Positions 2,461-25,501 of a stretch of 31,853 bases of DNA are shown here, one piece after another (the first letter of the stretch is position 1; the number at the start of each line of letters is the position of its first letter). A model generated the notes under the pieces. It saw only the letters and a list, made by a program, of their open reading frames with translations, ran no database searches and was not told the DNA's origin. The stretch comes from a virus. Lineage: Duplodnaviria > Caudoviricetes. The stretch is from positions 1-31,853 of IMG/VR virus record IMGVR_UViG_3300031589_000012. One strand, 5' to 3'. The translations under genes and the position numbers were made by a program.

Positions 2461-2777
2461 ATAAATTAATTGCCATAGAACTACAAGATTTTTGCAATAC
2501 AATTGCTGAACGATACTCTAATATAAAAAGAGTTGGAAACGTAAACAACGAAACATTTTCAGTTGAAGAAATTATACCAACTTCAGACCATACGGCTTGC
2601 GTAAACTTCGTGAAAACTGGCGGCAAAGTTGCTGTTGCTTTTTTCTATTACATTAATAAAGGAAGGTCAAAGGGTTGGAAATACTTTTTCCCAACCGACT
2701 CTCATGTTAATGGATTCCAGGCGTTTTTATACTACAAACTGGAAGCAGAGCGTAAAAATTATTCTAAAAACTTTTAA
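2457..2777 (+). CDS. Hypothetical phage protein, 106 aa
   Basis: Coupled start and globular-looking sequence; last gene of the + strand block. Confidence 0.8.
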   Translation: MNKLIAIELQDFCNTIAERYSNIKRVGNVNNETFSVEEIIPTSDHTACVNFVKTGGKVAVAFFYYINKGRSKGWKYFFPTDSHVNGFQAFLYYKLEAERKNYSKNF

Positions 2778-5700
2778 TCTTCAAATTTATCGTCATCATC
2801 TTCTTGAAATTCATTATCATCAAGCTCTTTTTTTTCAGCGGCATCTTGTTTAAGCTCATACCTATACTCCTCTGGATCACTCACCTTTAAAAATTCCATA
2901 TATTTTTTACGTTCCTTTTTTGCTTTTGCTTCTCTTCGCTCAATAACCCCATCTTCAAACATATCCTTCATAACAATTCTTCTAATATCCTTGTAAAATG
3001 GAATAAGTCCCATGTTTCCTAAAGATTCTAAAGCCATTCTACTTGTAAGTTCGTCCATGTTTTTCTCACGACTCTCCTTGGTTTTATTGTTTTGAGATCT
3101 ATATAATAAAGCTACACTACGCTCAACAGTATTTAATATCGGCCCCATTGGCCCAGCAAATATTTTTGCCATAGTGGCAATAAAACCTTTCTTAGCAATA
3201 TCATCTTCATTAAACTGAGAGAAACTTATTGAATGTTTAAAAGGATTATATTCTCCTTCTCTAAAGTCACCCAGCATTAATTCATTAAATTTCTCTATAC
3301 CGTATGATGGTATAAGGTTAGGAACATTACCTACACTTCTACGCGTCATTAATTGCAACATAGTCCCAATAGTCTGACGCATAATAATGTCTTCAATATC
3401 AGACTCATCCTCTTCAACCTCTGCGTTGCTGAAAAGTTCATCAAAGCCTTGTGAGAAAACACCATACAAAATAGGATACATAGTCATCCTTGCTGTTGCG
3501 GCAAGCAAAACTGCAGATGCTTGACTCCTGGACATATCACCACTTCTATATAACGCTCCAATAGCATTACGAACAGTACCATATTCAAACAAACTAAAAC
3601 TTGCCATGAATTTATTCACAGTTCGATACATATTAGATATATTACCAGAAGATTCACCAACTGATCTACTTTGATTTTTAATAACTCCTTTAAATGGATT
3701 ATTTGAACTACTAATCATAGTACCCATTTGATCAGCCTTACGAGTAGATCTCTCTACTGCTTTTTCATATTCTTTTTTAATACTTCCATCTTTATTCTGA
3801 ATCTTAGAAGTTCCTTCTCCAATAGCCTCCATATCTTTTTTAGAAAGATCTATACCTGTCTCATTTTTAAATGTTTGAGAAAAAGTACCATACCACATTG
3901 GTATTGATATCGCTTTATCTGGTGATTGTATCATTCCTGATGCCAAAGTATCTATAGCACCAACAGTTTGTTTTGGCCCTAACTTTAAAAGCTGGCCAAT
4001 AACATTCATAAAAGCACTCCTTGCTCTTTGTGATTTTGGAGATGTCTGCGCAAAATTACTCATATCTGTCATACGAGAAGATATACTCTTAGGATCAAAA
4101 AGCTTTGTTGTTTCTGTAGAGCCTAATGCGTTTAATATAGCCGCTCCTTTTTTCCTTCCTAAAAACGAAAGAGTAGCGTATTTAGTAAAACCTCGTGCTG
4201 CTGCTTTTGGATTAGTGGTCAAGTAAGTCATGTTTGAAACAAGCTCCGCTCCCATCCTTGGTAAAGATGCTAATATAGCCTGATAAGCAGTTCTCTTAAC
4301 TTTATTTGCAACCTCTTCTGCAAGAGTAACGTCTCGCATAGTTTCAGTAAAAGTTACTTTTAATATCTCAGTAAGAGACTTCTGTAGAGCTTTAGCAGCC
4401 TTAACTGAAGGAACAGTTCCTTCTGACGCCATGTTCTTTAAAACCTTGTTAGCAGTCTTCTGAACCTCACGAACTGTAGGTGTCATGTAGTAATCTAAAT
4501 TAGTTTCTTGAACACCTCTTTGTGCTGAAAGAGAAGGATCAAAACTTACTGGCCTAACACCTTTTTGTCTCTCTACCATTGTACCACCTTTAGTAGAAGC
4601 GTTTGCAAACGTATCTGCTTTTGCTTTTACATCTACTTCAGCATCTTTTGATGTGCTAAGAACAATTCTGTGAGAATATCCATTTAATAAATCAATTCTG
4701 TTAGATCGCAATACTGCGGATGTAAACTTGGCTTTTGATGCTAAACTTGCATTAACATCATCATAAATTTTTAAAGCTTTTTTCTCACCAGTAGTTAAAC
4801 TTTTTTCTAATTTATCTAAACTAATTTCTCCATCTACAGTAAACTCTTCAGCAATTTTATTAAGAATTTTAAAGTCATTCTCATAGCCTTCTGTATCTTT
4901 AAAAAACTTTAAAGTAGCGTCTATCATTTTCTTGGCCGAAGGAGCTACTGGGTTTTCTTTTCCGTTTTTGTCAATATTTAATATATGCTCCCTGGCTAAT
5001 TGAAGTAATCTAATTTTATACTTTTTAGCTACAATTTTATTTGCAGTTGTACCAACTCTTAGCTTACGTCTTAAAATATTCTTACCATCATATTCTAATA
5101 TTCTTTCAGCAGCTTCTATTTTTCCAAAATCTTTTTTAGTATCAACAGTAAATCGCTCATAAACTTGAGCCAGCTTACCGAAAGTATTTTCGTATATAGT
5201 CTTACTGTTAAAGTTTCCAAATGCATTATCAATATATGCAGCAGGCCCAGATCTCACTTTGTCTAATAAAATATTTTTTCCAGAAGGAGTATTGCTTTTA
5301 ATTGCAGTTTTAATAGATGAGGTTATGTTCCTAAGGTTTAACATAATACCTTTCAAGGTTACCTTTGATATCGGTACAGATACTTTTTTAGCAGCTTTAT
5401 TACTAATAACTTCAGTCAATAAATTCATAGCAGTAGGAGTTACAATACCCTGTGCTAAATTTTGCTTCACACCTCTTAATTGCTCTAACTGAGAGTAATC
5501 AAAAGTCCCATCTTCTTTTTCAATTATTAAACTTTCAATGTCTTCTTTTGTAAAATCATTAATTTGATCAGCTACTAATTTAGATTCTTTATCTGTAATA
5601 GCTTCTAAGTTAGCTTTTGTTGTTTGGATCTCTGTTATAGCCTCTACAAGATCATATTCTTTAGCTTCTTTCTCTTCTTTAGGAGCTACCTCTACTTCTT

Positions 5701-8700
5701 CTGTTTGCTCAAGACTGTTTAATATATCTAAACCTGTTTGAGTATCTGCTCCTATTGTCTTTATATTCAACGCTCCTCTCTTTGGCTTTACACCATAAGT
5801 GTTCATCAAAGACTCAAAAGCATCTAATTTATTTAAAGGAATAGAACTAAGATCAGTCTTACCTAATTCCTGTAAAACCTCTACAAGAGCAATGTTTTCA
5901 GAACCAATTAATCCCTTTTTTATATTCTTATCAATTTGAGACTGTTTCTTTTTGGCATTAAATAAACGCTCTGAAATAGAAGCATCAACAAGTACTTTTG
6001 TTAGATAAGTGTTTAGCTTCTCTACTTGTTTAGCATCTGTTAACTTAGTTCTTAATGTCTTCGCTAATAAAAGCTTCGCTTGTCTATTTGATATTTTACC
6101 TTTGGCTTTTATATCTTTAATATAAGCAGCAACTTTATTAGCAGCTTTTCTATAAGCATTTTCAGATTGCTTCGCTGCTTTAGCCTCTAATTTTATTTGA
6201 GATTTTAAAGCCGATGCCTCATCAACTTCAATCTTAGATTGTGTTTGTCCTGTAATTTTTTTAGGAGAAGGCCCTCTTTTTTTACCAAACTTCCCTGGTT
6301 CAGCAGCTGCTTTCTGGTTTGATTCTTTGTTTCTTTGCTTAGTAGCAACTAAAGGTTCTCTGTTAGGATCAATAGATAGTACTTTATTTATATTTCTTTT
6401 TGTTGGTTTTAAGCCAGTTAGATTTTCAAATTTAATTTCTAAATCTACCAACCCAAGAGGTTTTCCAGTCTGTACATCTAACTTACCAGTAGGATTTGCA
6501 GTAATAAAATCAATAACTTCCTGAATAAGTTCCTTAGAATTTTCCTGAGTATATCCATCAAGTTCCATTATCTGAACATCTAATTCAGATTTAGGACTTT
6601 GACCATATTTGTTTTTTTTCTTAAACCAAAAACGTCTCATTTGAGGATTAATATTAGTTCTATCTCCAAAACGAGCGTAATCTTCTTCGGTTATTTTTCC
6701 TATAATTCCTTTTATATCTAAAGGATCAGCTAAAGATTCTTGTTCTGACTTACTAAGTTCTTTTGATCTTTTTTTCTCTGCATCAATAGTCTCAGCAATT
6801 TCTTTTATGTTGTTAGAATTTTCTGCAATCTCAGCAGTGTATTGTTCTGGTGTTAAATTAGTAGACTCATCTAAATTTAAAGGAGCGCCATCATTAACAT
6901 CTATAATGTTTTCAAGGATATACTCTTGAACAGCTGGTTTAATTGGCCCATCTAAAGGTCTACCTGTTTTTCTTTCTACAGCACTAATTGTTCCATCAGA
7001 AGATACTTCAATATCTACCGAACGACTTCCAGGTACTCTATATCTTCCTGGTTGTTTTTGACGCTTAGTTGTAAATCCTTCTACTTTCTTTTCCTGCTCT
7101 TTAGTAGGGGTGTCCTGGGTTTGGCTTTCTTGACCAACTTCGGTAGTCTCTTGGTTGACGTTGCTTTCTCCCACTCCTTGGCCATCGCTGGTTTGTTCTT
7201 GTACATCCAGGCTCTCTGTTTCTGACTTTTGAACGGCATCTTCTTTGGTTTTAGTTGTTTCTGTTTCTATACCTAACTTCTGTTTCTGGTCAGTTGTTAA
7301 GCCTGCTGTCTTTTTAGGATTGTTTACTTCATTACCAGAAATTTCTGATGTCTTCTCAACAACATCACCATCATATTCAAAACCAGCTCTTACTTGTTGT
7401 TCAGCAGTTAATCCTTTTCTGATAATAATAGCATTGTCACCAAGTTTTGTATTTTGTTTGTTAACTTGATTTCCTTCTGCATCAAAAAACACAGATTCAG
7501 CTGGGCCAAGTGAACCATCTAAGTATGTGTTTACAGTTACCTCTACTCTGCCACCATCCTCAGTAGTTACAGTAAATAATTCTTTCTTGAAAACAACATT
7601 ATTATCTTGAAACTTTTTTGTTTCTTCTTCTGCGGCTATTGCGTTTTCAGCTTGCTGATCAGAGTTTTTAAGCTGCTCCATCATGGCTTGTTGCTTATCA
7701 CGTAAACTGTTGGGGTTGAAGGATGTTTCTCCTTCTAAAACAAGTTGGTCAATAGCGTCTTGTTCTGTTACAACTAAATTTTCAGTGAAAGTATTACCAT
7801 CTCTTTCAATAGTAACACTCTCACTTAATGCACCATCATACTTTTGAACCAGCGCTTTTATTTGTTCATTTATCTGGTCTCTTTTTAACCTTGTAGTCTC
7901 TGATCTTGAATCAGGAAGTTTGCTTTTTTCAATCTCTAATTTAATAAGAGCATCCATATCTGGCCCAACAGGAACATTAGTTGTCTCTGATATTTCTAAT
8001 TCAAACTGTGAAGTAGCTTTTAAGTCAGTTACAACTTTCTTAATATCAGAATCATTCTTAACAACAATATTCATCTCTGCAATTTGAGCAGGAGTAGCCG
8101 TACCTATCGTTGCTAAAATATAATTTTTAGTAACAAGATCGCCATTTAAACTGTATTGAGGAGTTGTATAAACACCTCTTGCTATAGATATTGGAGCATT
8201 ACCTGCTCCTGCAAAACCTTCAAGACCTATTTCAGCCACGTCCATTTTCTGACCAGCAGCAAGTCTTGCTACCGCTTCACCTGTACTACCTCCAACAATC
8301 TCAACACCTAAACCAGCTGATATCTCAATACCTTTGTTTACCATAGCTCTGGTAACAGTTCCTTTACCTCCAGTAGCTAACAATTTTTCTGTTGCGCTTG
8401 CTAAAACTGTACGTGTAGCTCCAACAGCTTTTCCAGCAAGACCAGCAGTCAAGGCGTCAATCATACCTATAGCAAGACCTCTCGCTGCGGCTCTATTTCT
8501 AATACTTTGAAGAGCTTCAGGATCATTTAAAACTTTTCGTATTCCTTCTTGATTAAATTTACCTCCTTTTTTTTCAACCTCTTCTTTCATAAACTCAGTA
8601 TAAGACATACCAAATTCCAAAGCAGACGAAGCGCCACCCATAGCTCCAGCTACACCACCTGCTCCTGCTCCAAATAAAGCTAAAGGCCCACCTGCTGCTG

Positions 8701-9625
8701 TTAGTGCAGCACCTGTACCTGCTCCCACCGCTGCTCCTGCTCCTGCTGCTGCAAGAGATCCTGGATTAAACATTGAAGCAAGTGAGTCAACAAGTAATTC
8801 TGGAGCTATAGAAAGGTTTGATCCAAAGCCAAGCATAAAACCAAGTACACCACCACCATTTGATTCGTAAATTTTCTGAAAGCTTTTCATTTCATCTGAA
8901 ACAGCAACATTTTCAGATTGTTTAACAGCAGCTATATAATTTTCTAATTCTTCTGGTGAGATATTTTTTCCTTTTGCAAATAAAGCAATAGAATCGTCTA
9001 CAGACTGTCCTTTAGTAAAACCATTACCAATAGCTCTATATATATCACCCCAGAAATCAGCACTTAAAACTCCTAAAATTGGAACATCATCAAACGCCCA
9101 ATCAGAAGCTTTTCCTAACCAGCTTTCTTCAAGCCAAGTCGTACCTTCTTCTAATTCTTTTTCTTCGTCAACTACATTACCTTGTTCGTCAAATTGAAAA
9201 ATATCAGTACCACCTTCCATCATTTCTGAAATTCTTTCAGTGGCAGTTGAATTAGGATTTTCTACTCCAGGAAGAGTATCTTGAGGAGTTTCAATGTTTT
9301 CCTCTACAATAGTTTCATTTGGGTTTTCAACTATTATGTCTGAAGAATCCGAAGATCCAACTGTCTCCACTGTAGGAGTTGAAGTATTTGATTCCGTATT
9401 TTCCGTTGGAGAAATAATAGGAGAATCTCCAGTTTCGATTTTTTTTTTTCGTGTAAAATTAACACCTTCTTTAAAGTCTTCGATTGAATCAAAAGAACCA
9501 TCTTTTAAAAGACCAAATATAGTTTCTGGATCAGCACCATCAGTAAAGTCTATAAATTCTTGTAAAGAATCGAACGCACCTTCTTGAAGTAAATCGTATT
9601 CAAATAAATCTTCTATTTCAAACAT
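2774..9625 (-). CDS. Giant internal virion/ejection protein (T7 gp16 position; large polyvalent-type), 2283 aa
   Basis: Last gene of the structural operon. Acidic N-terminus, Gly/Ala-rich hydrophobic segments (about 8240-8870), acidic linkers, long helical C-terminal half. No RNA polymerase DxDxD motif seen. Confidence 0.75.
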   Translation of the reverse strand: MFEIEDLFEYDLLQEGAFDSLQEFIDFTDGADPETIFGLLKDGSFDSIEDFKEGVNFTRKKKIETGDSPIISPTENTESNTSTPTVETVGSSDSSDIIVENPNETIVEENIETPQDTLPGVENPNSTATERISEMMEGGTDIFQFDEQGNVVDEEKELEEGTTWLEESWLGKASDWAFDDVPILGVLSADFWGDIYRAIGNGFTKGQSVDDSIALFAKGKNISPEELENYIAAVKQSENVAVSDEMKSFQKIYESNGGGVLGFMLGFGSNLSIAPELLVDSLASMFNPGSLAAAGAGAAVGAGTGAALTAAGGPLALFGAGAGGVAGAMGGASSALEFGMSYTEFMKEEVEKKGGKFNQEGIRKVLNDPEALQSIRNRAAARGLAIGMIDALTAGLAGKAVGATRTVLASATEKLLATGGKGTVTRAMVNKGIEISAGLGVEIVGGSTGEAVARLAAGQKMDVAEIGLEGFAGAGNAPISIARGVYTTPQYSLNGDLVTKNYILATIGTATPAQIAEMNIVVKNDSDIKKVVTDLKATSQFELEISETTNVPVGPDMDALIKLEIEKSKLPDSRSETTRLKRDQINEQIKALVQKYDGALSESVTIERDGNTFTENLVVTEQDAIDQLVLEGETSFNPNSLRDKQQAMMEQLKNSDQQAENAIAAEEETKKFQDNNVVFKKELFTVTTEDGGRVEVTVNTYLDGSLGPAESVFFDAEGNQVNKQNTKLGDNAIIIRKGLTAEQQVRAGFEYDGDVVEKTSEISGNEVNNPKKTAGLTTDQKQKLGIETETTKTKEDAVQKSETESLDVQEQTSDGQGVGESNVNQETTEVGQESQTQDTPTKEQEKKVEGFTTKRQKQPGRYRVPGSRSVDIEVSSDGTISAVERKTGRPLDGPIKPAVQEYILENIIDVNDGAPLNLDESTNLTPEQYTAEIAENSNNIKEIAETIDAEKKRSKELSKSEQESLADPLDIKGIIGKITEEDYARFGDRTNINPQMRRFWFKKKNKYGQSPKSELDVQIMELDGYTQENSKELIQEVIDFITANPTGKLDVQTGKPLGLVDLEIKFENLTGLKPTKRNINKVLSIDPNREPLVATKQRNKESNQKAAAEPGKFGKKRGPSPKKITGQTQSKIEVDEASALKSQIKLEAKAAKQSENAYRKAANKVAAYIKDIKAKGKISNRQAKLLLAKTLRTKLTDAKQVEKLNTYLTKVLVDASISERLFNAKKKQSQIDKNIKKGLIGSENIALVEVLQELGKTDLSSIPLNKLDAFESLMNTYGVKPKRGALNIKTIGADTQTGLDILNSLEQTEEVEVAPKEEKEAKEYDLVEAITEIQTTKANLEAITDKESKLVADQINDFTKEDIESLIIEKEDGTFDYSQLEQLRGVKQNLAQGIVTPTAMNLLTEVISNKAAKKVSVPISKVTLKGIMLNLRNITSSIKTAIKSNTPSGKNILLDKVRSGPAAYIDNAFGNFNSKTIYENTFGKLAQVYERFTVDTKKDFGKIEAAERILEYDGKNILRRKLRVGTTANKIVAKKYKIRLLQLAREHILNIDKNGKENPVAPSAKKMIDATLKFFKDTEGYENDFKILNKIAEEFTVDGEISLDKLEKSLTTGEKKALKIYDDVNASLASKAKFTSAVLRSNRIDLLNGYSHRIVLSTSKDAEVDVKAKADTFANASTKGGTMVERQKGVRPVSFDPSLSAQRGVQETNLDYYMTPTVREVQKTANKVLKNMASEGTVPSVKAAKALQKSLTEILKVTFTETMRDVTLAEEVANKVKRTAYQAILASLPRMGAELVSNMTYLTTNPKAAARGFTKYATLSFLGRKKGAAILNALGSTETTKLFDPKSISSRMTDMSNFAQTSPKSQRARSAFMNVIGQLLKLGPKQTVGAIDTLASGMIQSPDKAISIPMWYGTFSQTFKNETGIDLSKKDMEAIGEGTSKIQNKDGSIKKEYEKAVERSTRKADQMGTMISSSNNPFKGVIKNQSRSVGESSGNISNMYRTVNKFMASFSLFEYGTVRNAIGALYRSGDMSRSQASAVLLAATARMTMYPILYGVFSQGFDELFSNAEVEEDESDIEDIIMRQTIGTMLQLMTRRSVGNVPNLIPSYGIEKFNELMLGDFREGEYNPFKHSISFSQFNEDDIAKKGFIATMAKIFAGPMGPILNTVERSVALLYRSQNNKTKESREKNMDELTSRMALESLGNMGLIPFYKDIRRIVMKDMFEDGVIERREAKAKKERKKYMEFLKVSDPEEYRYELKQDAAEKKELDDNEFQEDDDDKFED
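7081..7239 (-). CDS. Nested overlapping gene in the +1 frame of the giant protein: 52-aa basic protein MPFKSQKQRAWMYKNKPAMAKEWEKATSTKRLPKLVKKAKPRTPLLKSRKRK
   Basis: ATG 7239-7237 to TAG 7083-7081, with A-rich leader (ACTAAAACCAAAGAAG-ATG). Local GC is about 48% by hand count (76/159), with many G/C-ending codons in the host frame. Confidence 0.75.
   Translation of the reverse strand: MPFKSQKQRAWMYKNKPAMAKEWEKATSTKRLPKLVKKAKPRTPLLKSRKRK
9439..9449 (-). other. A11 homopolymer, candidate slippage/frameshift site near codon 60 of the giant gene
   Basis: Minus strand reads ACA CGA AAA AAA AAA ATC. The -1 frame stays open to TGA 9329-9327 and the +1 frame to TAA 9336-9334. Confidence 0.55.
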
Positions 9626-14780: not shown

Positions 14781-17700
14781 TTAAGGACAAGTTACTAATT
14801 CTATTACTAATCCATTTGATGTAACTCTAATATATTTAGTAGCTTCTGATTTATAATAACCTGCTGTTAAAGGCACTGCTTGACTACTGGTACAAATAGA
14901 AGAAGAATAAACAAAATCATTTAAACCAGGATATGTTCCTGATCCAGTGTGATAATATGTTTGAGACAATGGTTGATTACATACATCCGAAACCTCTTGA
15001 CTTGTACTTGCTAAAAAAGCAACACAATTAACAACGCATTCGCAACAAGCATTATCAGCAGAAGTTGCATCGTAACAAAACTGTTGACACGATGTCGTTC
15101 TATAGTCGTATATCAAATATAAATATTGATTACTTAAAGGAATTGACAATGCGGTCAATGTAGCTTGATACAACCCTTCAGATGGACTAACAACGCTACT
15201 GTTTGGTATAGTGGTTGATGCAGTCAATAAAGACGCTATATCAGTCTGATTGTTTTGATACAAAGTATTGCTTGAAAGATATTTAAAATTATCGTTAGGA
15301 TAACCCCAATCATAATCGTCAAAATTTATTTTATTAGATCTAAGAGTTAAATCTACTCCATCAAGTGGAAACACCCCTAAAGATCTAATTCCAACTTGAG
15401 GATCATAGGTAGACGCTATTAAATGCGAATTACCAAATTGATTCAAATCACTATCTACAGGACTTATATTCGTAGAGTTTTCCCAGAAATATTCATTATG
15501 AATATATTTATTAGCATCAACATTTGAGTTCATAACCACCTTCACAACAGTAATATTTACTTGAGTAGGGCAATTATAATCTATAATAAAACTTGATGAT
15601 GAACCAATAGAATTAACAGTTACAACTGCATTAGTTGGTGTATTTAAAGACTTACTCCAAGAGTATGATCCTGAACCAGTTAAAGTGCCACTTGTAAATG
15701 TAGTTCCGTTCCATAATACTGATATTGTAATACTTCCTGAAGTTACATTATAGCCAATTAAAACATCTCCGATTACATTTCCAAAATTTACTGTAGAAGG
15801 AAAAGCTGTACCAACTGGTAGACCGCTTCTATTTATAGATGTACCACATGGTATTACTTGAGGGGGAATAGGCACTGGTATTTGATTCATAGCCAACACA
15901 TACTCATCCATATAAGGATCAAATGCTCCTAATTTTTGATTATTTAAATTGTTATAAAATTCATCTCTAAAAAAAGATCTCATTCCAGAATCGGAAATAA
16001 CAGTCAAACTTTCTCCTTGACCTCCTTGTGCGTTTCCTGACAGCAATAATACAGCTCCTCTTTTTGAATCTGTAAAGTAAGTATCAAACCCATGAGTTAT
16101 AAAGCTTTCTGGATTAAAACTAATACCATACTCTTCTATACGAGCTATTTGAGTTCCTAAGACTTGAGGGACAGATGTAACAACACCGCCTCCTGTAGAA
16201 TCAGTCAATAAATTTTTGCTTGCTAAAACATATGATATTTTATCTTCTTGTAAAACTAATATATCAGTTTTTCTTGCGTGCATTTTTTGAATAGGCCCAT
16301 AAGAAGTTTCTAAATCTTTAAAGTTTACTAAGCCTAAATTAAATTCATTTAAGTTATTTGTTCCACTATTACTACTATAAACTCCACTATAAGTCATTCC
16401 CTCAAATCTATCCGTTTCTTTATAGTCTTGATTAGATACAGCTAAAACCCTTTCGCCTAACTGAAAACTCTTAGCTGCTAATTGATCTTTTATCTTATAA
16501 CTTTCAACACCATTACCAAACGTATAAACATCTGCGAAATCTAACCCAATAACAGCATCTTGTGTAGAAGTTTGGTTTTGATCAAACTCTCCTGTTCCTG
16601 ACAAGTGATTTCCATTAGCATCAATATCAAACATTTGACTTGCATCATAATATAAATCTGGATTTGCGTCTAATGGTTCTGATTCAAATACCATTAAAGT
16701 GTTGGCTCTAAATACAATAATATCAGCCGATATACTTGATTTTCTTTGAGAAGCAAATTGTCTGTTTGCGCCAGGTATACCACTATTTATACCAAAGTAT
16801 AACGGAGAGGTTTCGTCACCTGGAACATCTTGAACAAAACCTAACCTTACTTTAAAACCTTCACAAGGAAGGTTTGAGGCAAACCCAAATTCATTTTGAG
16901 GTGGAGGTACTGATGCATTTACAAATCCTGCATCATAAGAAGCGACTACTTCGTCATCTCCAAAACCATTTACATTACCAGGAGATGCTAATGCTACATT
17001 TACATTATCTCCATCATACCATCTTTTTAAATCTAAAAAATCTCTACTTGCCACAAACTGCTGCTCCCATTCCCAAGTATATTCTTTAGCTCCACCTGGA
17101 AAACCAGTTGAAGATCTTTGCGCTCTAAATTTTAATTTAATAATTGAACCAGCTGGAACAGTATACTGTGTTGTTCCTGTAATAACTCCATCAGAATCAA
17201 ATTGAGTGGTAAAACAAGGATACCCTACATTTCTTCCCTCTGGACTACAACCTTGTCTTACAGAATTTGCTACTTGATCTCCATAATCTATAACAGAATC
17301 ATCAGGAATCGCAACATTAAAATTTTGATTTTTAACATTCATATATAAACCAGGCAATTGGCTTATTTCTTCAAAGCCAACCTCTCCAGCTATCTTTAAG
17401 AAATCCGTACCCTCTGCTGTTATATCTAAAACAGTAATTTTTTCTACCCTTGGTAAAGCTCCATCTACATCTGCTTTTACTATTAACGTCTGTCCCTTTG
17501 AAACCTTATTAGCATTATCACCTTCTAATTTAAAGAAAATCATATTGTCACTTGGTCTTACATAATAGAAATTTGTAAATATAGTTTCATATGTTCCTAA
17601 ACTTGGTTTGACAACAAACTTATATTTGCTTGCCCAATAAGGAGCTATACTACTTAATTGAACTAAAATTGAATTTACACTAACAGAATTAGCAGGTTCA

Positions 17701-19607
17701 ATATATATTGTATTATACTCTGAAACTAATACAGTAGAAGCTCGCGCATATTCATCCATGTAAACAATACCTGTCTCATAATCTCTATTACTATGTAAAC
17801 TTGTGGTATCATTATCAGAAGTAAAAGTAACTTCTCCAGAAACAAATCTAAAAAATTCAAAAATATTAGTTGTTATTGGTGCTGCTGGATCAGTAACATC
17901 TATGTTTTGATAGTTCATTGCGATTAACTGCAACTCAAGTGTATCAGATCCTGGAACTACAGCAGTTAAAGCAAATCCTTGCTGTGCAGTAGCATCAGTT
18001 ATACTACTATTAAATTTTATAAAAACACATTCTTCAGCAGGAACAGCTAAAATATTATTAAATAAATCAGTTAAAGAGCTTCCTGTATCCGCTAAAAGTA
18101 TAGACTTAAATCTACCATCTGTTAATATACCTGTTCCAATTGCGTCTTTAAATTGAGCAGAACTGGCAAAATCATAAACAGAAGAGTAATTTTCTTCTAA
18201 CGTAATAGATATTGATATAGCAAAATTTGCGTTTTTAAACTCTTCATTAGCAGCGTAACAAGTAGTAGTTGTTGTGCCAGTTAATTTAGAGTGTTCAAAA
18301 CGAAAAGAAAAACCTATTACAGATCCTTGTTTTAACTTAGAAGAAATTTCCGATAAGTTAATAGTGATTTTACTATTATCTATACTTTCAGTTGTTCCAG
18401 AAAGAGTATATGAAGCTCCATTTCCAACGCTTGGCTGAGACAAAGTTACAAAGTCTACATTTTTTGAAACATAAGATGTTGAAAAATCTAACGCTATGTT
18501 TGATCCTTCAGAACTATTTCTTTTAAAATCATATCCATCAACAAAGTTTCCATAAAACAATCTATTACTCATTACTGTTTGAGCTTTTGCTGTTCTTGGA
18601 ACATTGTCGTATTGTCTTAATAATTCATCTCCACCTATTGTGGTATAAATTTTACTATTTGTAAACGAATAAGTTTTAGACGTATCATCGGCCCATCCAT
18701 AGTCTTCTTTTTTGAATCTTTCTATTACAAAAATAGTGTTTGAAGTTGTTTCTTTGTATAATAAGTCTATTTCTAAAACACGCTTACTACCAGTATTAAA
18801 AGTTATAACCGCTCCGTTATACCTATTAACCATACCGCCATTTAAATAATTTCTTGGATCAAATGAAAAAGTACTTGCTGCAAAAGCTGGTTTTGTAAAT
18901 AAAGAAGTAGCGCTATATTGATTATCTTGATATCTATATCTATATGCAAAACAAACAAATCTTTCTTTTAAGTAATTTTCATTACCAGGTAATGTAACAA
19001 GTTCAACAGTTGGAGCTGGTAAAGTAATATTCCCTCCAACAACATCCTCAAAACCAGGAGGTTTAACTATTACAGATATATCTTCTTCAACAATCTGATC
19101 TGTGTTACCAATTGGATTAGGATAATTTCTACCTATATTAATCATTCTTGGAGGATTTATATCGTCTGTAAAAAACAATAATTCTCCATCCACTAAATCA
19201 ACTGCTGTTATTAAAAACTTAGGATCAAAATTTAATACTTGAGTAGAAACTACGTGATATTGAACAACTTGATTTTGAGTATTAAAAGAAACTATTAAAT
19301 CAATACCTTCAGCTTTTGAGGGAAAATCTTTGTCATGTATAAACCAATAGATGTTTTCTCTCATCCCATCCTCATAAGCTCCTATACATATTGCTGTTGA
19401 TGACAACGAGACACCTTCAAATTGAATTGTAGTTAACTGTTCATTACCTCTGGAGTTTTCTACAGCACCTATTTCAGTAGTTTCTGTAGCTCCTAAACGA
19501 ACATTTAAAGCATCAATATACTCCCCAGGAGGAAGTAATCTTTCATCGATAGATTTATTCATTCTACCTGCGGTAAAATTAGTTGTAACTATTTCTGATT
19601 TAGCCAT
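14781..19607 (-). CDS. Tail nozzle/stabilisation (muzzle) protein, P22 gp10 / T7 gp12 analogue, 1608 aa
   Basis: N-terminal NFTAGRMNKSIDERLLPPGEYIDALNVR, LFFTDDINPPRMIN, FAYRYRYQDNQYS, AKAQ...NRLFYGNF, YGPIQK...LVLQEDK, EYGISFNPESF. These fit crAss-like stabilisation proteins, as does its position. Confidence 0.85.
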   Translation of the reverse strand: MAKSEIVTTNFTAGRMNKSIDERLLPPGEYIDALNVRLGATETTEIGAVENSRGNEQLTTIQFEGVSLSSTAICIGAYEDGMRENIYWFIHDKDFPSKAEGIDLIVSFNTQNQVVQYHVVSTQVLNFDPKFLITAVDLVDGELLFFTDDINPPRMINIGRNYPNPIGNTDQIVEEDISVIVKPPGFEDVVGGNITLPAPTVELVTLPGNENYLKERFVCFAYRYRYQDNQYSATSLFTKPAFAASTFSFDPRNYLNGGMVNRYNGAVITFNTGSKRVLEIDLLYKETTSNTIFVIERFKKEDYGWADDTSKTYSFTNSKIYTTIGGDELLRQYDNVPRTAKAQTVMSNRLFYGNFVDGYDFKRNSSEGSNIALDFSTSYVSKNVDFVTLSQPSVGNGASYTLSGTTESIDNSKITINLSEISSKLKQGSVIGFSFRFEHSKLTGTTTTTCYAANEEFKNANFAISISITLEENYSSVYDFASSAQFKDAIGTGILTDGRFKSILLADTGSSLTDLFNNILAVPAEECVFIKFNSSITDATAQQGFALTAVVPGSDTLELQLIAMNYQNIDVTDPAAPITTNIFEFFRFVSGEVTFTSDNDTTSLHSNRDYETGIVYMDEYARASTVLVSEYNTIYIEPANSVSVNSILVQLSSIAPYWASKYKFVVKPSLGTYETIFTNFYYVRPSDNMIFFKLEGDNANKVSKGQTLIVKADVDGALPRVEKITVLDITAEGTDFLKIAGEVGFEEISQLPGLYMNVKNQNFNVAIPDDSVIDYGDQVANSVRQGCSPEGRNVGYPCFTTQFDSDGVITGTTQYTVPAGSIIKLKFRAQRSSTGFPGGAKEYTWEWEQQFVASRDFLDLKRWYDGDNVNVALASPGNVNGFGDDEVVASYDAGFVNASVPPPQNEFGFASNLPCEGFKVRLGFVQDVPGDETSPLYFGINSGIPGANRQFASQRKSSISADIIVFRANTLMVFESEPLDANPDLYYDASQMFDIDANGNHLSGTGEFDQNQTSTQDAVIGLDFADVYTFGNGVESYKIKDQLAAKSFQLGERVLAVSNQDYKETDRFEGMTYSGVYSSNSGTNNLNEFNLGLVNFKDLETSYGPIQKMHARKTDILVLQEDKISYVLASKNLLTDSTGGGVVTSVPQVLGTQIARIEEYGISFNPESFITHGFDTYFTDSKRGAVLLLSGNAQGGQGESLTVISDSGMRSFFRDEFYNNLNNQKLGAFDPYMDEYVLAMNQIPVPIPPQVIPCGTSINRSGLPVGTAFPSTVNFGNVIGDVLIGYNVTSGSITISVLWNGTTFTSGTLTGSGSYSWSKSLNTPTNAVVTVNSIGSSSSFIIDYNCPTQVNITVVKVVMNSNVDANKYIHNEYFWENSTNISPVDSDLNQFGNSHLIASTYDPQVGIRSLGVFPLDGVDLTLRSNKINFDDYDWGYPNDNFKYLSSNTLYQNNQTDIASLLTASTTIPNSSVVSPSEGLYQATLTALSIPLSNQYLYLIYDYRTTSCQQFCYDATSADNACCECVVNCVAFLASTSQEVSDVCNQPLSQTYYHTGSGTYPGLNDFVYSSSICTSSQAVPLTAGYYKSEATKYIRVTSNGLVIELVTCP

Positions 19608-24349: not shown

Positions 24350-25501
24350 TTAATTATTTTTACTACTTCTAATTTTGAGTCCTCTTCCATGCTCATTACG
24401 ATTATTAGTAGTCACAGGGCGTATTTTCATTCCATCTTTTGAAACAGTTTGAGATTGTTGTCTAAGATCCATATTAATGTTTTTAGATTTTCTTGAAACA
24501 TCATCTACAGCGTTAGCTACACCTTGATCATAAAAATATTGAGCAAATTTATCAGGATTCATCGCTACCGATAAAGCCTTATGATAACCTACAGCGTCTT
24601 TAATTAATCCACTTTCATCTAAATATTTGCCGATAAAATTACCAACATTAGATTGAACATTTTTTAATTCTTCCGCAGTCCCTGGTTTAAAAGTAAGTTT
24701 ATTATCAGACACATTAAAATCAAAACCTTTGAAATCACTGTTAAACACATCATTTGTTCTGTCTGTAAAAAATTTAGCTTTTTTACCGTTTGCCTCTTCT
24801 AAACTTTTAGATTCCTCTATATAACTTTTATAAGCATTAATGTTTTTTTCTTGATCTTCAGATAATGCACCCCCACTTGACTCAAGAGGAATGTTGTACT
24901 TATCTTTCTGTTCATTTAAAAACTTCTTTGCCTTAGAAAGTTCACGTTTTTTAGCTAATTTTACCTTCTTAATTTCTCTTGGTTCATCCAGGTCTTCGTC
25001 AAAACTGAATTTATCCTCAATAATATCTTGAATATCTATTTCATCTAAACCTTCTTCAGTTGATGAATAGTAATTAGCCAGTACAGCATCATCATCCATA
25101 GAATCAAAATCCTTTTGTAAATTATAAAAGTCTTCAATTCCACGACCTGTTTCTTGCTTGTACTTAAAATACGCTGACACATCATCTGGTAAATCTACAT
25201 TTGCCTCTTTTTCCGCAAATAATTCATCAACAGATTCAATATCTTTGTCGTATCTATCTTTTATATATGAAAGAACATCTCTGTCATTTATCTCTGACGG
25301 TGTGTTTACTTCAACTTTTTCTTCAACTTTTTCTTCAACTTTTTCTTCGGTTGAATTAATATTAGATAAATTAATTTTATCTATTCCAGTTTCTTTATTT
25401 GCTGAATCGTCAAATTTTTCTTCATGTGCTTTTAGTAAATCATTCTCTACTTCAACACGAGACTTCTCTTCTTTTGTTACTTCTTTTACTTTAAATTCCA
25501 T
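24350..25501 (-). CDS. Capsid scaffolding protein, 383 aa
   Basis: Very acidic and helical, between portal and capsid genes, with a basic C-terminal tail. Confidence 0.7.
   Translation of the reverse strand: MEFKVKEVTKEEKSRVEVENDLLKAHEEKFDDSANKETGIDKINLSNINSTEEKVEEKVEEKVEVNTPSEINDRDVLSYIKDRYDKDIESVDELFAEKEANVDLPDDVSAYFKYKQETGRGIEDFYNLQKDFDSMDDDAVLANYYSSTEEGLDEIDIQDIIEDKFSFDEDLDEPREIKKVKLAKKRELSKAKKFLNEQKDKYNIPLESSGGALSEDQEKNINAYKSYIEESKSLEEANGKKAKFFTDRTNDVFNSDFKGFDFNVSDNKLTFKPGTAEELKNVQSNVGNFIGKYLDESGLIKDAVGYHKALSVAMNPDKFAQYFYDQGVANAVDDVSRKSKNINMDLRQQSQTVSKDGMKIRPVTTNNRNEHGRGLKIRSSKNN
25310..25345 (+). repeat. Three perfect 12-bp tandem repeats (TTCAACTTTTTC), encoding EKVE repeats in the scaffold linker
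   Basis: Read directly at 25310-25321, 25322-25333 and 25334-25345. Confidence 0.9.

Follow-up and report, generated by a model that had tools for sequence, protein, structure and literature searches.

A small basic gene nested in a giant phage gene is conserved in its own frame and likely older than the segment that covers it

A small ORF in the +1 frame of a giant marine-phage gene is conserved across most of the related phages and shows the substitution pattern of a gene selected in its own right. It was found in a 31,853-nucleotide stretch of viral DNA (hereafter the window). We consider it moderately probable, taking all parts of the statement together, that this is a selected gene that is likely translated, that it is older than the host segment covering it, and that its product is a DNA binder packed in the phage head. 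Comparison of sequences supports a real nested gene, and the direction of origin given in a preliminary description of this DNA is likely reversed. This family likely represents an ancient phage protein that went unnoticed and whose gene larger genes have engulfed time and again.

Table 1 Features of the window that bear on the nested gene and its host.
Feature	Position	Strand	Basis or remark
Giant host gene, 2283 aa, phrog_32588, last in the virion operon; putative ejection/cargo role	2774..9625	-	
Conserved Gly/Ala-rich hydrophobic N-terminal domain of the giant; query of the peptide-independent survey	8006..9070	-	
Shuffled giant module 'M'	7250..7624	-	upstream of the nested gene here, downstream in other phages
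Initiation region: A-rich, SD-free, unstructured, AAA at -13..-11	7240..7255	-	leader analysis; pattern in the available part of PMC6847099
Nested gene, 52 aa, +1 frame of the giant gene	7081..7239	-	translation, family, selection
Conserved core, codons 1-27; predicted helices 6-15 and 17-26	7159..7239	-	alignment, structure model
Variable K/R-rich tail; no predicted secondary structure	7084..7158	-	alignment, structure model
Acidic host-frame segment D796-V848, the -1 reading of the small gene	7082..7240	-	composition
Scaffold-like gene between portal and probable major capsid gene; no nested copy here, homologues with one	24350..25501	-	
Crassvirus muzzle-like tail protein, PF25731, E 3e-11; crAss-like virion context	14781..19607	-	

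The nested ORF lies on the minus strand, which the preliminary description had not stated, and its translation is identical to the one quoted there. The small basic ORF proposed in the +1 frame of the giant gene is present, and its reported composition is reproduced: 13 Asp/Glu in the host segment, 19 Lys/Arg and two Glu in the peptide, and a GC content of 47.8% over the nested span compared with 34.9% for the whole giant gene. The G/C-ending host codons are likewise found (host GC3 of 43% in the span vs 19%), and the span is the top 53-codon window of the giant gene, other windows reaching 40% at most. Residues M1, P2, F3, S5, Q8, P17 and A20 of the core are invariant in 34 aligned copies. 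The structure model of the peptide (mean pLDDT 80) predicts two short helices followed by an unstructured basic tail. The length of the ORF by itself is within chance, the stop-free run being 61 codons and the next longest in the same frame 56. The case for a nested gene therefore rests on homology and on the substitution pattern, not on length. The ORF lies wholly inside another ORF in a different frame, and the second frame is under purifying selection.

Selection on the two frames was assessed in 16 disjoint pairs from the giant set collected independently of the peptide, with the first 25 nested codons taken as the core. Differences at host codon positions 1, 2 and 3 were.147,.090 and.277 in the flanks,.070,.052 and.040 in the core and.206,.100 and.124 in the tail (p=1.6e-4 and 5e-11), and host synonymous variation drops about 7-fold over the core. 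In 21 pairs from the set found through the peptide, 20 of them with an aligned core, the core values were.072,.028 and.018. Host position 1 is the wobble position of the peptide. Position 3 varied more than position 1 in the flanks of 16/16 pairs; over the nested span, position 1 exceeded position 3 in only 11/16. Changes in the host codons of the core comprise 40 non-synonymous and 9 synonymous ones, and the amino acids are 74% identical when the +1 frame is read vs 52% for the host frame, which bears out the expectation of a stronger constraint on the +1 frame.

As judged from its composition, the host frame is under constraint too, and its acidity is selected. It contains 27% Asp/Glu and 6% Lys/Arg in 72 nested copies, vs 10% and 22% in the corresponding frame of 29 AT-rich free copies. 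The acidity is reached through G and C at the wobble sites of the peptide; at two-fold sites of the tail preceding AA/AG codons, nested copies have 78 G:19 A and free copies 27 G:36 A, although the nested copies share kinship and these composition counts are not independent events. The preliminary description had proposed a charge-complementary pair of products. The acidity it pointed to is selected, but a polyanion-polycation pair is not needed to account for it, since the linker resembles the N-terminal half of the giant in acidity, equals its first 200 residues in this respect and is absent where the gene is free.

Direct matches to the window peptide comprise 13 called proteins, and relatives are encoded in 157 viral stretches. 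A profile search reached 3,783 clusters at 50% identity, a large family without a name, and a pattern scan of metagenomes gave an estimate of ~10,000 stretches, with 378 of the 598 examined confirmed. A separate collection of 157 copies from several searches, which includes near-duplicates, falls into 66 inside a -1 frame ORF of at least 800 aa, 41 free, 32 partly overlapped and 18 other. All six whole records with a match had exactly one copy. Stand-alone homologues, which had been anticipated, occur as annotated genes in Streptomyces phage FlowerPower (gp48) and phage 023Pt_psg01, and the family reaches Streptomyces and marine phage isolates, bacterial genomes and T4-like fusions. A nested Elemovirus copy (MT497075.1, 3582-3710), which bears Cys and is matched in 68 records, carries no annotation in its record, in line with the earlier remark that gene callers would miss the gene. 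Matches in phage C75C1 and Prochlorococcus phage P-RSP2 (L090:6001, L164:8001; L and P numbers are our handles for loci and proteins) lie where a same-frame gene annotation is missing, so free copies are overlooked too. The gene was not found in the cultured relatives phi18:3, phi46:3, Gundel_1 and Panino.

Several variants of the family can be observed. A two-Cys subfamily (C...W[DN]C), with a possible disulfide or metal site, is nested in giant and scaffold-like genes (L091:3582-3710, L244, L154, L377, L380, L402, L407). Divergent members from Acidobacteria and other bacteria (L139-L162) have an insertion of 6-10 residues between the helices and an apparently non-phage context; one of the divergent members (L151:8001-8165) is located 75 nt ahead of a Ku gene. 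At L018:4712-5083 and ~20 like loci, the last 24-30 codons of a conserved, unnamed ~125-aa gene overlap the core in the -1 frame, which is a stable state of partial overlap.

No match to the window peptide was obtained in Pfam, PHROG or NCBIfam. PHROG_1375 is matched by 20 of 34 aligned family members at E <=0.05 (best 1.3e-5), the window peptide (P0001) not being among them. Membership in DUF3008 (PF11450) was rejected, as none of the 34 + 28 aligned members matched its Pfam profile and the likeness consists of an Atlas feature score of 0.84 only. Foldseek returned nothing from the PDB and only uncharacterised relatives from BFVD, none at E<=0.001; PDB sequence-search matches to SH3BGRL and designed propellers are due to chance. 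An IF3-C fusion (P0033) was discounted as a fusion of a family member; it is probably an assembly chimera, as residues 1-42 are identical to the peptide nested in L098. Neither the family nor its nesting is described in the literature searched, which consists mainly of articles outside subscription journals; small-gene catalogues could list free members. The available part of PMC7077304 does not mention elemo phages, and the hit in the available part of PMC12919940 is a chance string match.

The window is half of the virus record and encodes GroES, terminase, portal, a 383-aa gene, a 497-aa virion protein and ring-like genes; the order continues with the crassvirus muzzle homologue and then genes of 734 and 2283 aa. 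Among cultured phages, the closest relatives belong to Elemovirus and infect Flavobacterium sp. BAL314; Panino and Pachyviridae come next. The giant matches only phrog_32588 and, weakly, an Elemovirus 'structural protein' (23% over 356 aa); its similarity to the MS-detected gp123 of phi18:3 was not significant (E 0.036 over 1364 aa compared). Its position, its hydrophobic domain and the analogy to crAss001 cargo proteins suggest that it may be an ejection or cargo protein. The product of the 383-aa gene is putatively scaffold-like, a label based on its place between the portal and the probable capsid gene and on its phi18:3 homologue not being marked as MS-detected. The position of module 'M' (125 aa) with respect to the nested gene differs from phage to phage, and L001, the closest relative, has two copies of the module. 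Two giants (L198:11551, L203:12892) are split by single frameshifts relative to close relatives, probably as a result of assembly errors.

The nested gene would be read from its own ATG on the late virion-operon mRNA. Its product would be a two-helix mini-protein with a basic tail, probably packed in the phage head and binding DNA there. For head-internal DNA binding, to which the neighbours, the fusions and the Lys/Arg content point, we see the balance as even. Of the 139 neighbours of free or partly overlapped copies, 114 were scanned, 25 near-duplicates being left out. Of 26 neighbours with a named family, 15 are portal, terminase or head protease; the 11 that are not head genes include two GroES. 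Copies in Acidobacteria genomes adjoin Ku and FabG-like genes. The module is nearly always found at the extreme N-terminus, also in long proteins. Eight of 70 matches of at least 100 aa have a Pfam match, including a MuF head protein and an InPase-bearing protein. Its occurrence across unrelated head types, together with the polybasic tail, would make DNA the common partner.

In T4-like contigs, the module opens long proteins whose genes begin 3-6 nt after that of a head maturation protease. Twelve of these proteins contain an ESVNE-type motif 18 times, vs 0.05 in shuffles, with a pattern that was chosen after seeing the sequences. Such Glu motifs may be gp21-type cut sites. The long MPFKS-headed proteins are possibly protease-processed head polyproteins. 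They are modular, with shared and shuffled internal modules (L320:1026-3038, L333:1476-3623, L322, L316, L331).

It is conceivable, though doubtful, that the 27-residue MPFKS module is a pan-Caudoviricetes tag for head loading or DNA docking. It would then serve either by itself, followed by a polybasic tail, or as the N-terminal part of head cargo proteins. Its gene would move between virion genes hidden in the +1 frame of acidic linkers of its own making. If this were true, a whole hidden layer of one of the most common small phage proteins would be missing from annotations.

A real nested gene could also encode a non-virion product. This might be a factor, made late or injected, that targets the nucleic acid, ribosomes or defence of the host, or else a general small stress protein that binds nucleic acid. 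Such a role would fit the Acidobacteria copies beside a Ku gene, copies near ribonucleotide reductase genes and the lack of the gene in several relatives with the same virion gene order; the feature-level likeness to DUF3008 clusters is a lead only. However, both recurrent nesting hosts belong to the virion operon, and the prevalence of head genes among the named neighbours as well as the fusions to head-type proteins speak for the head. We consider a non-virion product unlikely.

The distribution of the nested state was surveyed from the side of the host genes. We fetched 80 loci with the N-terminal domain of the giant, the peptide not being a criterion, and nine of them were cut before the site. 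Among the 71 informative giants, drawn from a clade biased by a seed alignment built from peptide-bearing giants, 66 contain the gene nested in +1, three have it free downstream, 1-7 nt past the giant's stop, and two have no gene there. The 66 comprise 64 detected by profile, one cut copy detected by motif, and L198, in which the giant is split by a single-base break shortly before the nested gene. A search with the C-terminal domain found five full giants, four with a nested copy and one (L085) with a free copy 9 nt past the stop. The linker left no trace in the four free-copy giants (0/4 with a positive-scoring match). In L225, whose giant is without a copy, the gene is instead nested in the +1 frame of the scaffold-like gene. 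The other locus without a copy in the giant, the complete genome L232, gave no match with a narrow profile.

In the corresponding survey of scaffold-like proteins, a nested copy was present in 27/80 genes, all of them among the 45 more distant genes and none among the 35 close ones. The copy-bearing scaffold-like protein is 34% identical to that of the window. Three contigs common to both surveys have the copy in the giant only. The gene is also nested in a giant of the phrog_616 type and in the terminal part of a sigma/HTH gene. Nested copies are also present in giants outside the cluster of the window's giant (L050:1028-8251, L134:5378-13108); the L134 giant matches phrog_616/14770, and the L050 group has no PHROG match. 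In L077-L080 (L077:1552-2178), the small gene is overlain by a sigma/LuxR-type HTH gene read in the -1 frame; a close relative (P0131) has an in-frame fusion of the two.

The preliminary description regarded the peptide as overprinted on the linker. This view is not supported: free copies of the peptide gene are spread over many unrelated phages, nested ones lie in hosts that are not homologous to each other, and the peptide is likely the older frame. By the distribution criterion, as given in the available part of PMC8227390, the more widely distributed frame is the ancestral one; the peptide is distributed more widely than the host segment and is taken as ancestral accordingly. A de novo overprinted frame would be the narrower one and would lack outside homologues, which is not what we found. 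The acidic linker is likely a recoded shadow of the older peptide frame, and embedding of free copies, as opposed to de novo birth, appears probable from these comparisons.

Embedding of free copies would have happened repeatedly, with the giant and the unrelated scaffold-like gene as hosts. The -1 frame would have been kept open in the process, at a cost of wobble changes only. In 51 free copies, that frame is interrupted by a median of 4 stops, each of which a wobble change could in principle remove. Driving the wobble choices to G/C would let the host read Glu/Gln instead of stop/Lys, resulting in a tolerated acidic linker. The partial overlaps, in which the upstream gene enters the core by ~27 codons in the same -1 frame, look like intermediates of embedding. 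A quick tree of the giant domain (51 rows) places the three free-downstream rows at two places among nested rows, requiring two changes, so that the tree is equally compatible with exits from nesting and with repeated entries; individual moves inside the giant family may have gone either way. A 64-aa gap in L085 is weakened as a clean proof of insertion or deletion, because the modules around the cassette are shuffled.

It was considered whether the peptide could instead have been born in the +1 frame of an acidic linker, with the free copies as escapes and the two products as a charge pair. The predominance of the nested state in the giant family, the free-downstream copies among nested rows and the selected host acidity are compatible with such a birth, and births in +1 are the commonest class of internal overlaps according to the available part of PMC8227390. 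Nevertheless, the family of the peptide extends far beyond the distribution of the host segment, nesting in non-homologous hosts is unexplained by one birth, and the giants with free copies carry no trace of the linker. De novo overprinting is therefore improbable, and we retain embedding as the preferred account.

All 56 non-redundant nested copies start with ATG, as had been predicted, and in 18 of the 56 at most one codon separates the ATG from an in-frame stop before it, an arrangement that speaks against a frameshifted entry. The A-rich leader with A at -3 noted earlier is present in the window, but A at -3 is not enriched in the family (11/26 vs 608/1927, p=0.29). In the 26 family leaders, A is found at -13, -12 and -11 at frequencies of 0.92, 0.92 and 0.85 vs ~0.37, and there is no SD-like word. 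Adenines at -3, -6, -12 and -13 are positive determinants of initiation in Flavobacterium (available part of PMC6847099). The 26 nested leaders score above other +1 ATGs (p=5e-11) and below ordinary starts; the window's own leader reaches only the 86th percentile of the background. The start region of the window has a folding energy of 0 (median -4.9), equalled by 1/83 other +1 ATGs. A sigma-70 promoter and terminator scan of 6900-7700, whose models do not cover Bacteroidota promoters, found none. Contigs from RNA libraries span the nested region with flat depth and small word shares, as contigs and not as a readout of transcription or translation. The nested ORF is very probably translated. 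The GAT to GAC change suggested earlier is valid, as it removes the ATG silently in the host frame.

A programmed +1 frameshift could in principle add the basic tail to a truncated giant protein. Frameshifts are often used in phage structural genes, and codons 2-4 of the nested frame are conserved (CCN TTC AAR). Given the invariant ATG, the close upstream stops, the start-like leader and the free copies that start at the same Met, we find this highly improbable. The weakest reading, a +1 ORF that is merely the by-product of a conserved host motif, would suit the unremarkable ORF length but is refuted at the sequence level by host synonymous sites that are almost frozen while host residues change, by the higher identity in +1 and by the annotated free homologues, and is barely tenable.

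To our knowledge, most examples of fully nested genes in tailed phages come from lysis cassettes. The present family takes free, partly overlapped and fully embedded forms, the hosts being at least two unrelated virion genes, and apparently has one copy per genome. It would constitute a natural series for nesting without de novo birth, a route that the survey of spanins discussed below could only propose. The acidic segment of many giant phage proteins would be the shadow of another gene, and abundant aquatic Bacteroidota phages would carry a conserved protein missing from annotation. Because a nested copy is present in a cultured Elemovirus (host Flavobacterium sp. BAL314), the idea is open to direct test.

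Parallels exist among head components. The crassvirus cargo proteins gp45-gp50 are large, encoded after the muzzle and hydrophobic in their N-terminal region (available part of PMC10172136). The giant resembles them in size, in its place after the muzzle homologue and in its hydrophobic N-terminal region, a likeness of layout; its sequence matches are the two named above. PHROG_1375, to which no function is assigned, receives weak matches from family members, and nesting is not part of its definition. T4 has small non-essential internal proteins of the head core, and an N-terminal targeting sequence can carry cargo into the prohead and is processed by the protease (available part of PMC9958956). 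The analogy is one of working principle: the module described here is also N-terminal in long proteins encoded behind a head protease. Unlike the T4 targeting sequence, it comprises ~27 aa and also occurs in podo-like and crAss-like phages, and the comparison does not draw on sequence similarity.

Gene E within D of phiX174 (available part of PMC8227390) is, as here, a same-strand +1 internal overlap with suppressed synonymous variation in the host gene. In contrast to that pair, the nested frame is here the widely distributed one, and by the Keese-Gibbs criterion the host segment is new. An embedded o-spanin of the Rz1 type was rejected for the window peptide, which has no Cys or hydrophobic signal and whose host is the 2283-aa virion-operon gene. 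The lambda spanin genes Rz/Rz1 nevertheless share with this family a small gene inside a larger one, in another frame, in a tolerant linker and missed by gene callers. In contrast to spanins, this family has no lipoprotein signal or lysis context, and its host gene varies between giant, scaffold-like and others. Two-component spanins occur in embedded, overlapped and separated architectures, for which an origin from separated genes is favoured (available part of PMC6139136). While the available part of that survey contains no family that mixes the embedded architecture with others, the family described here has all three.
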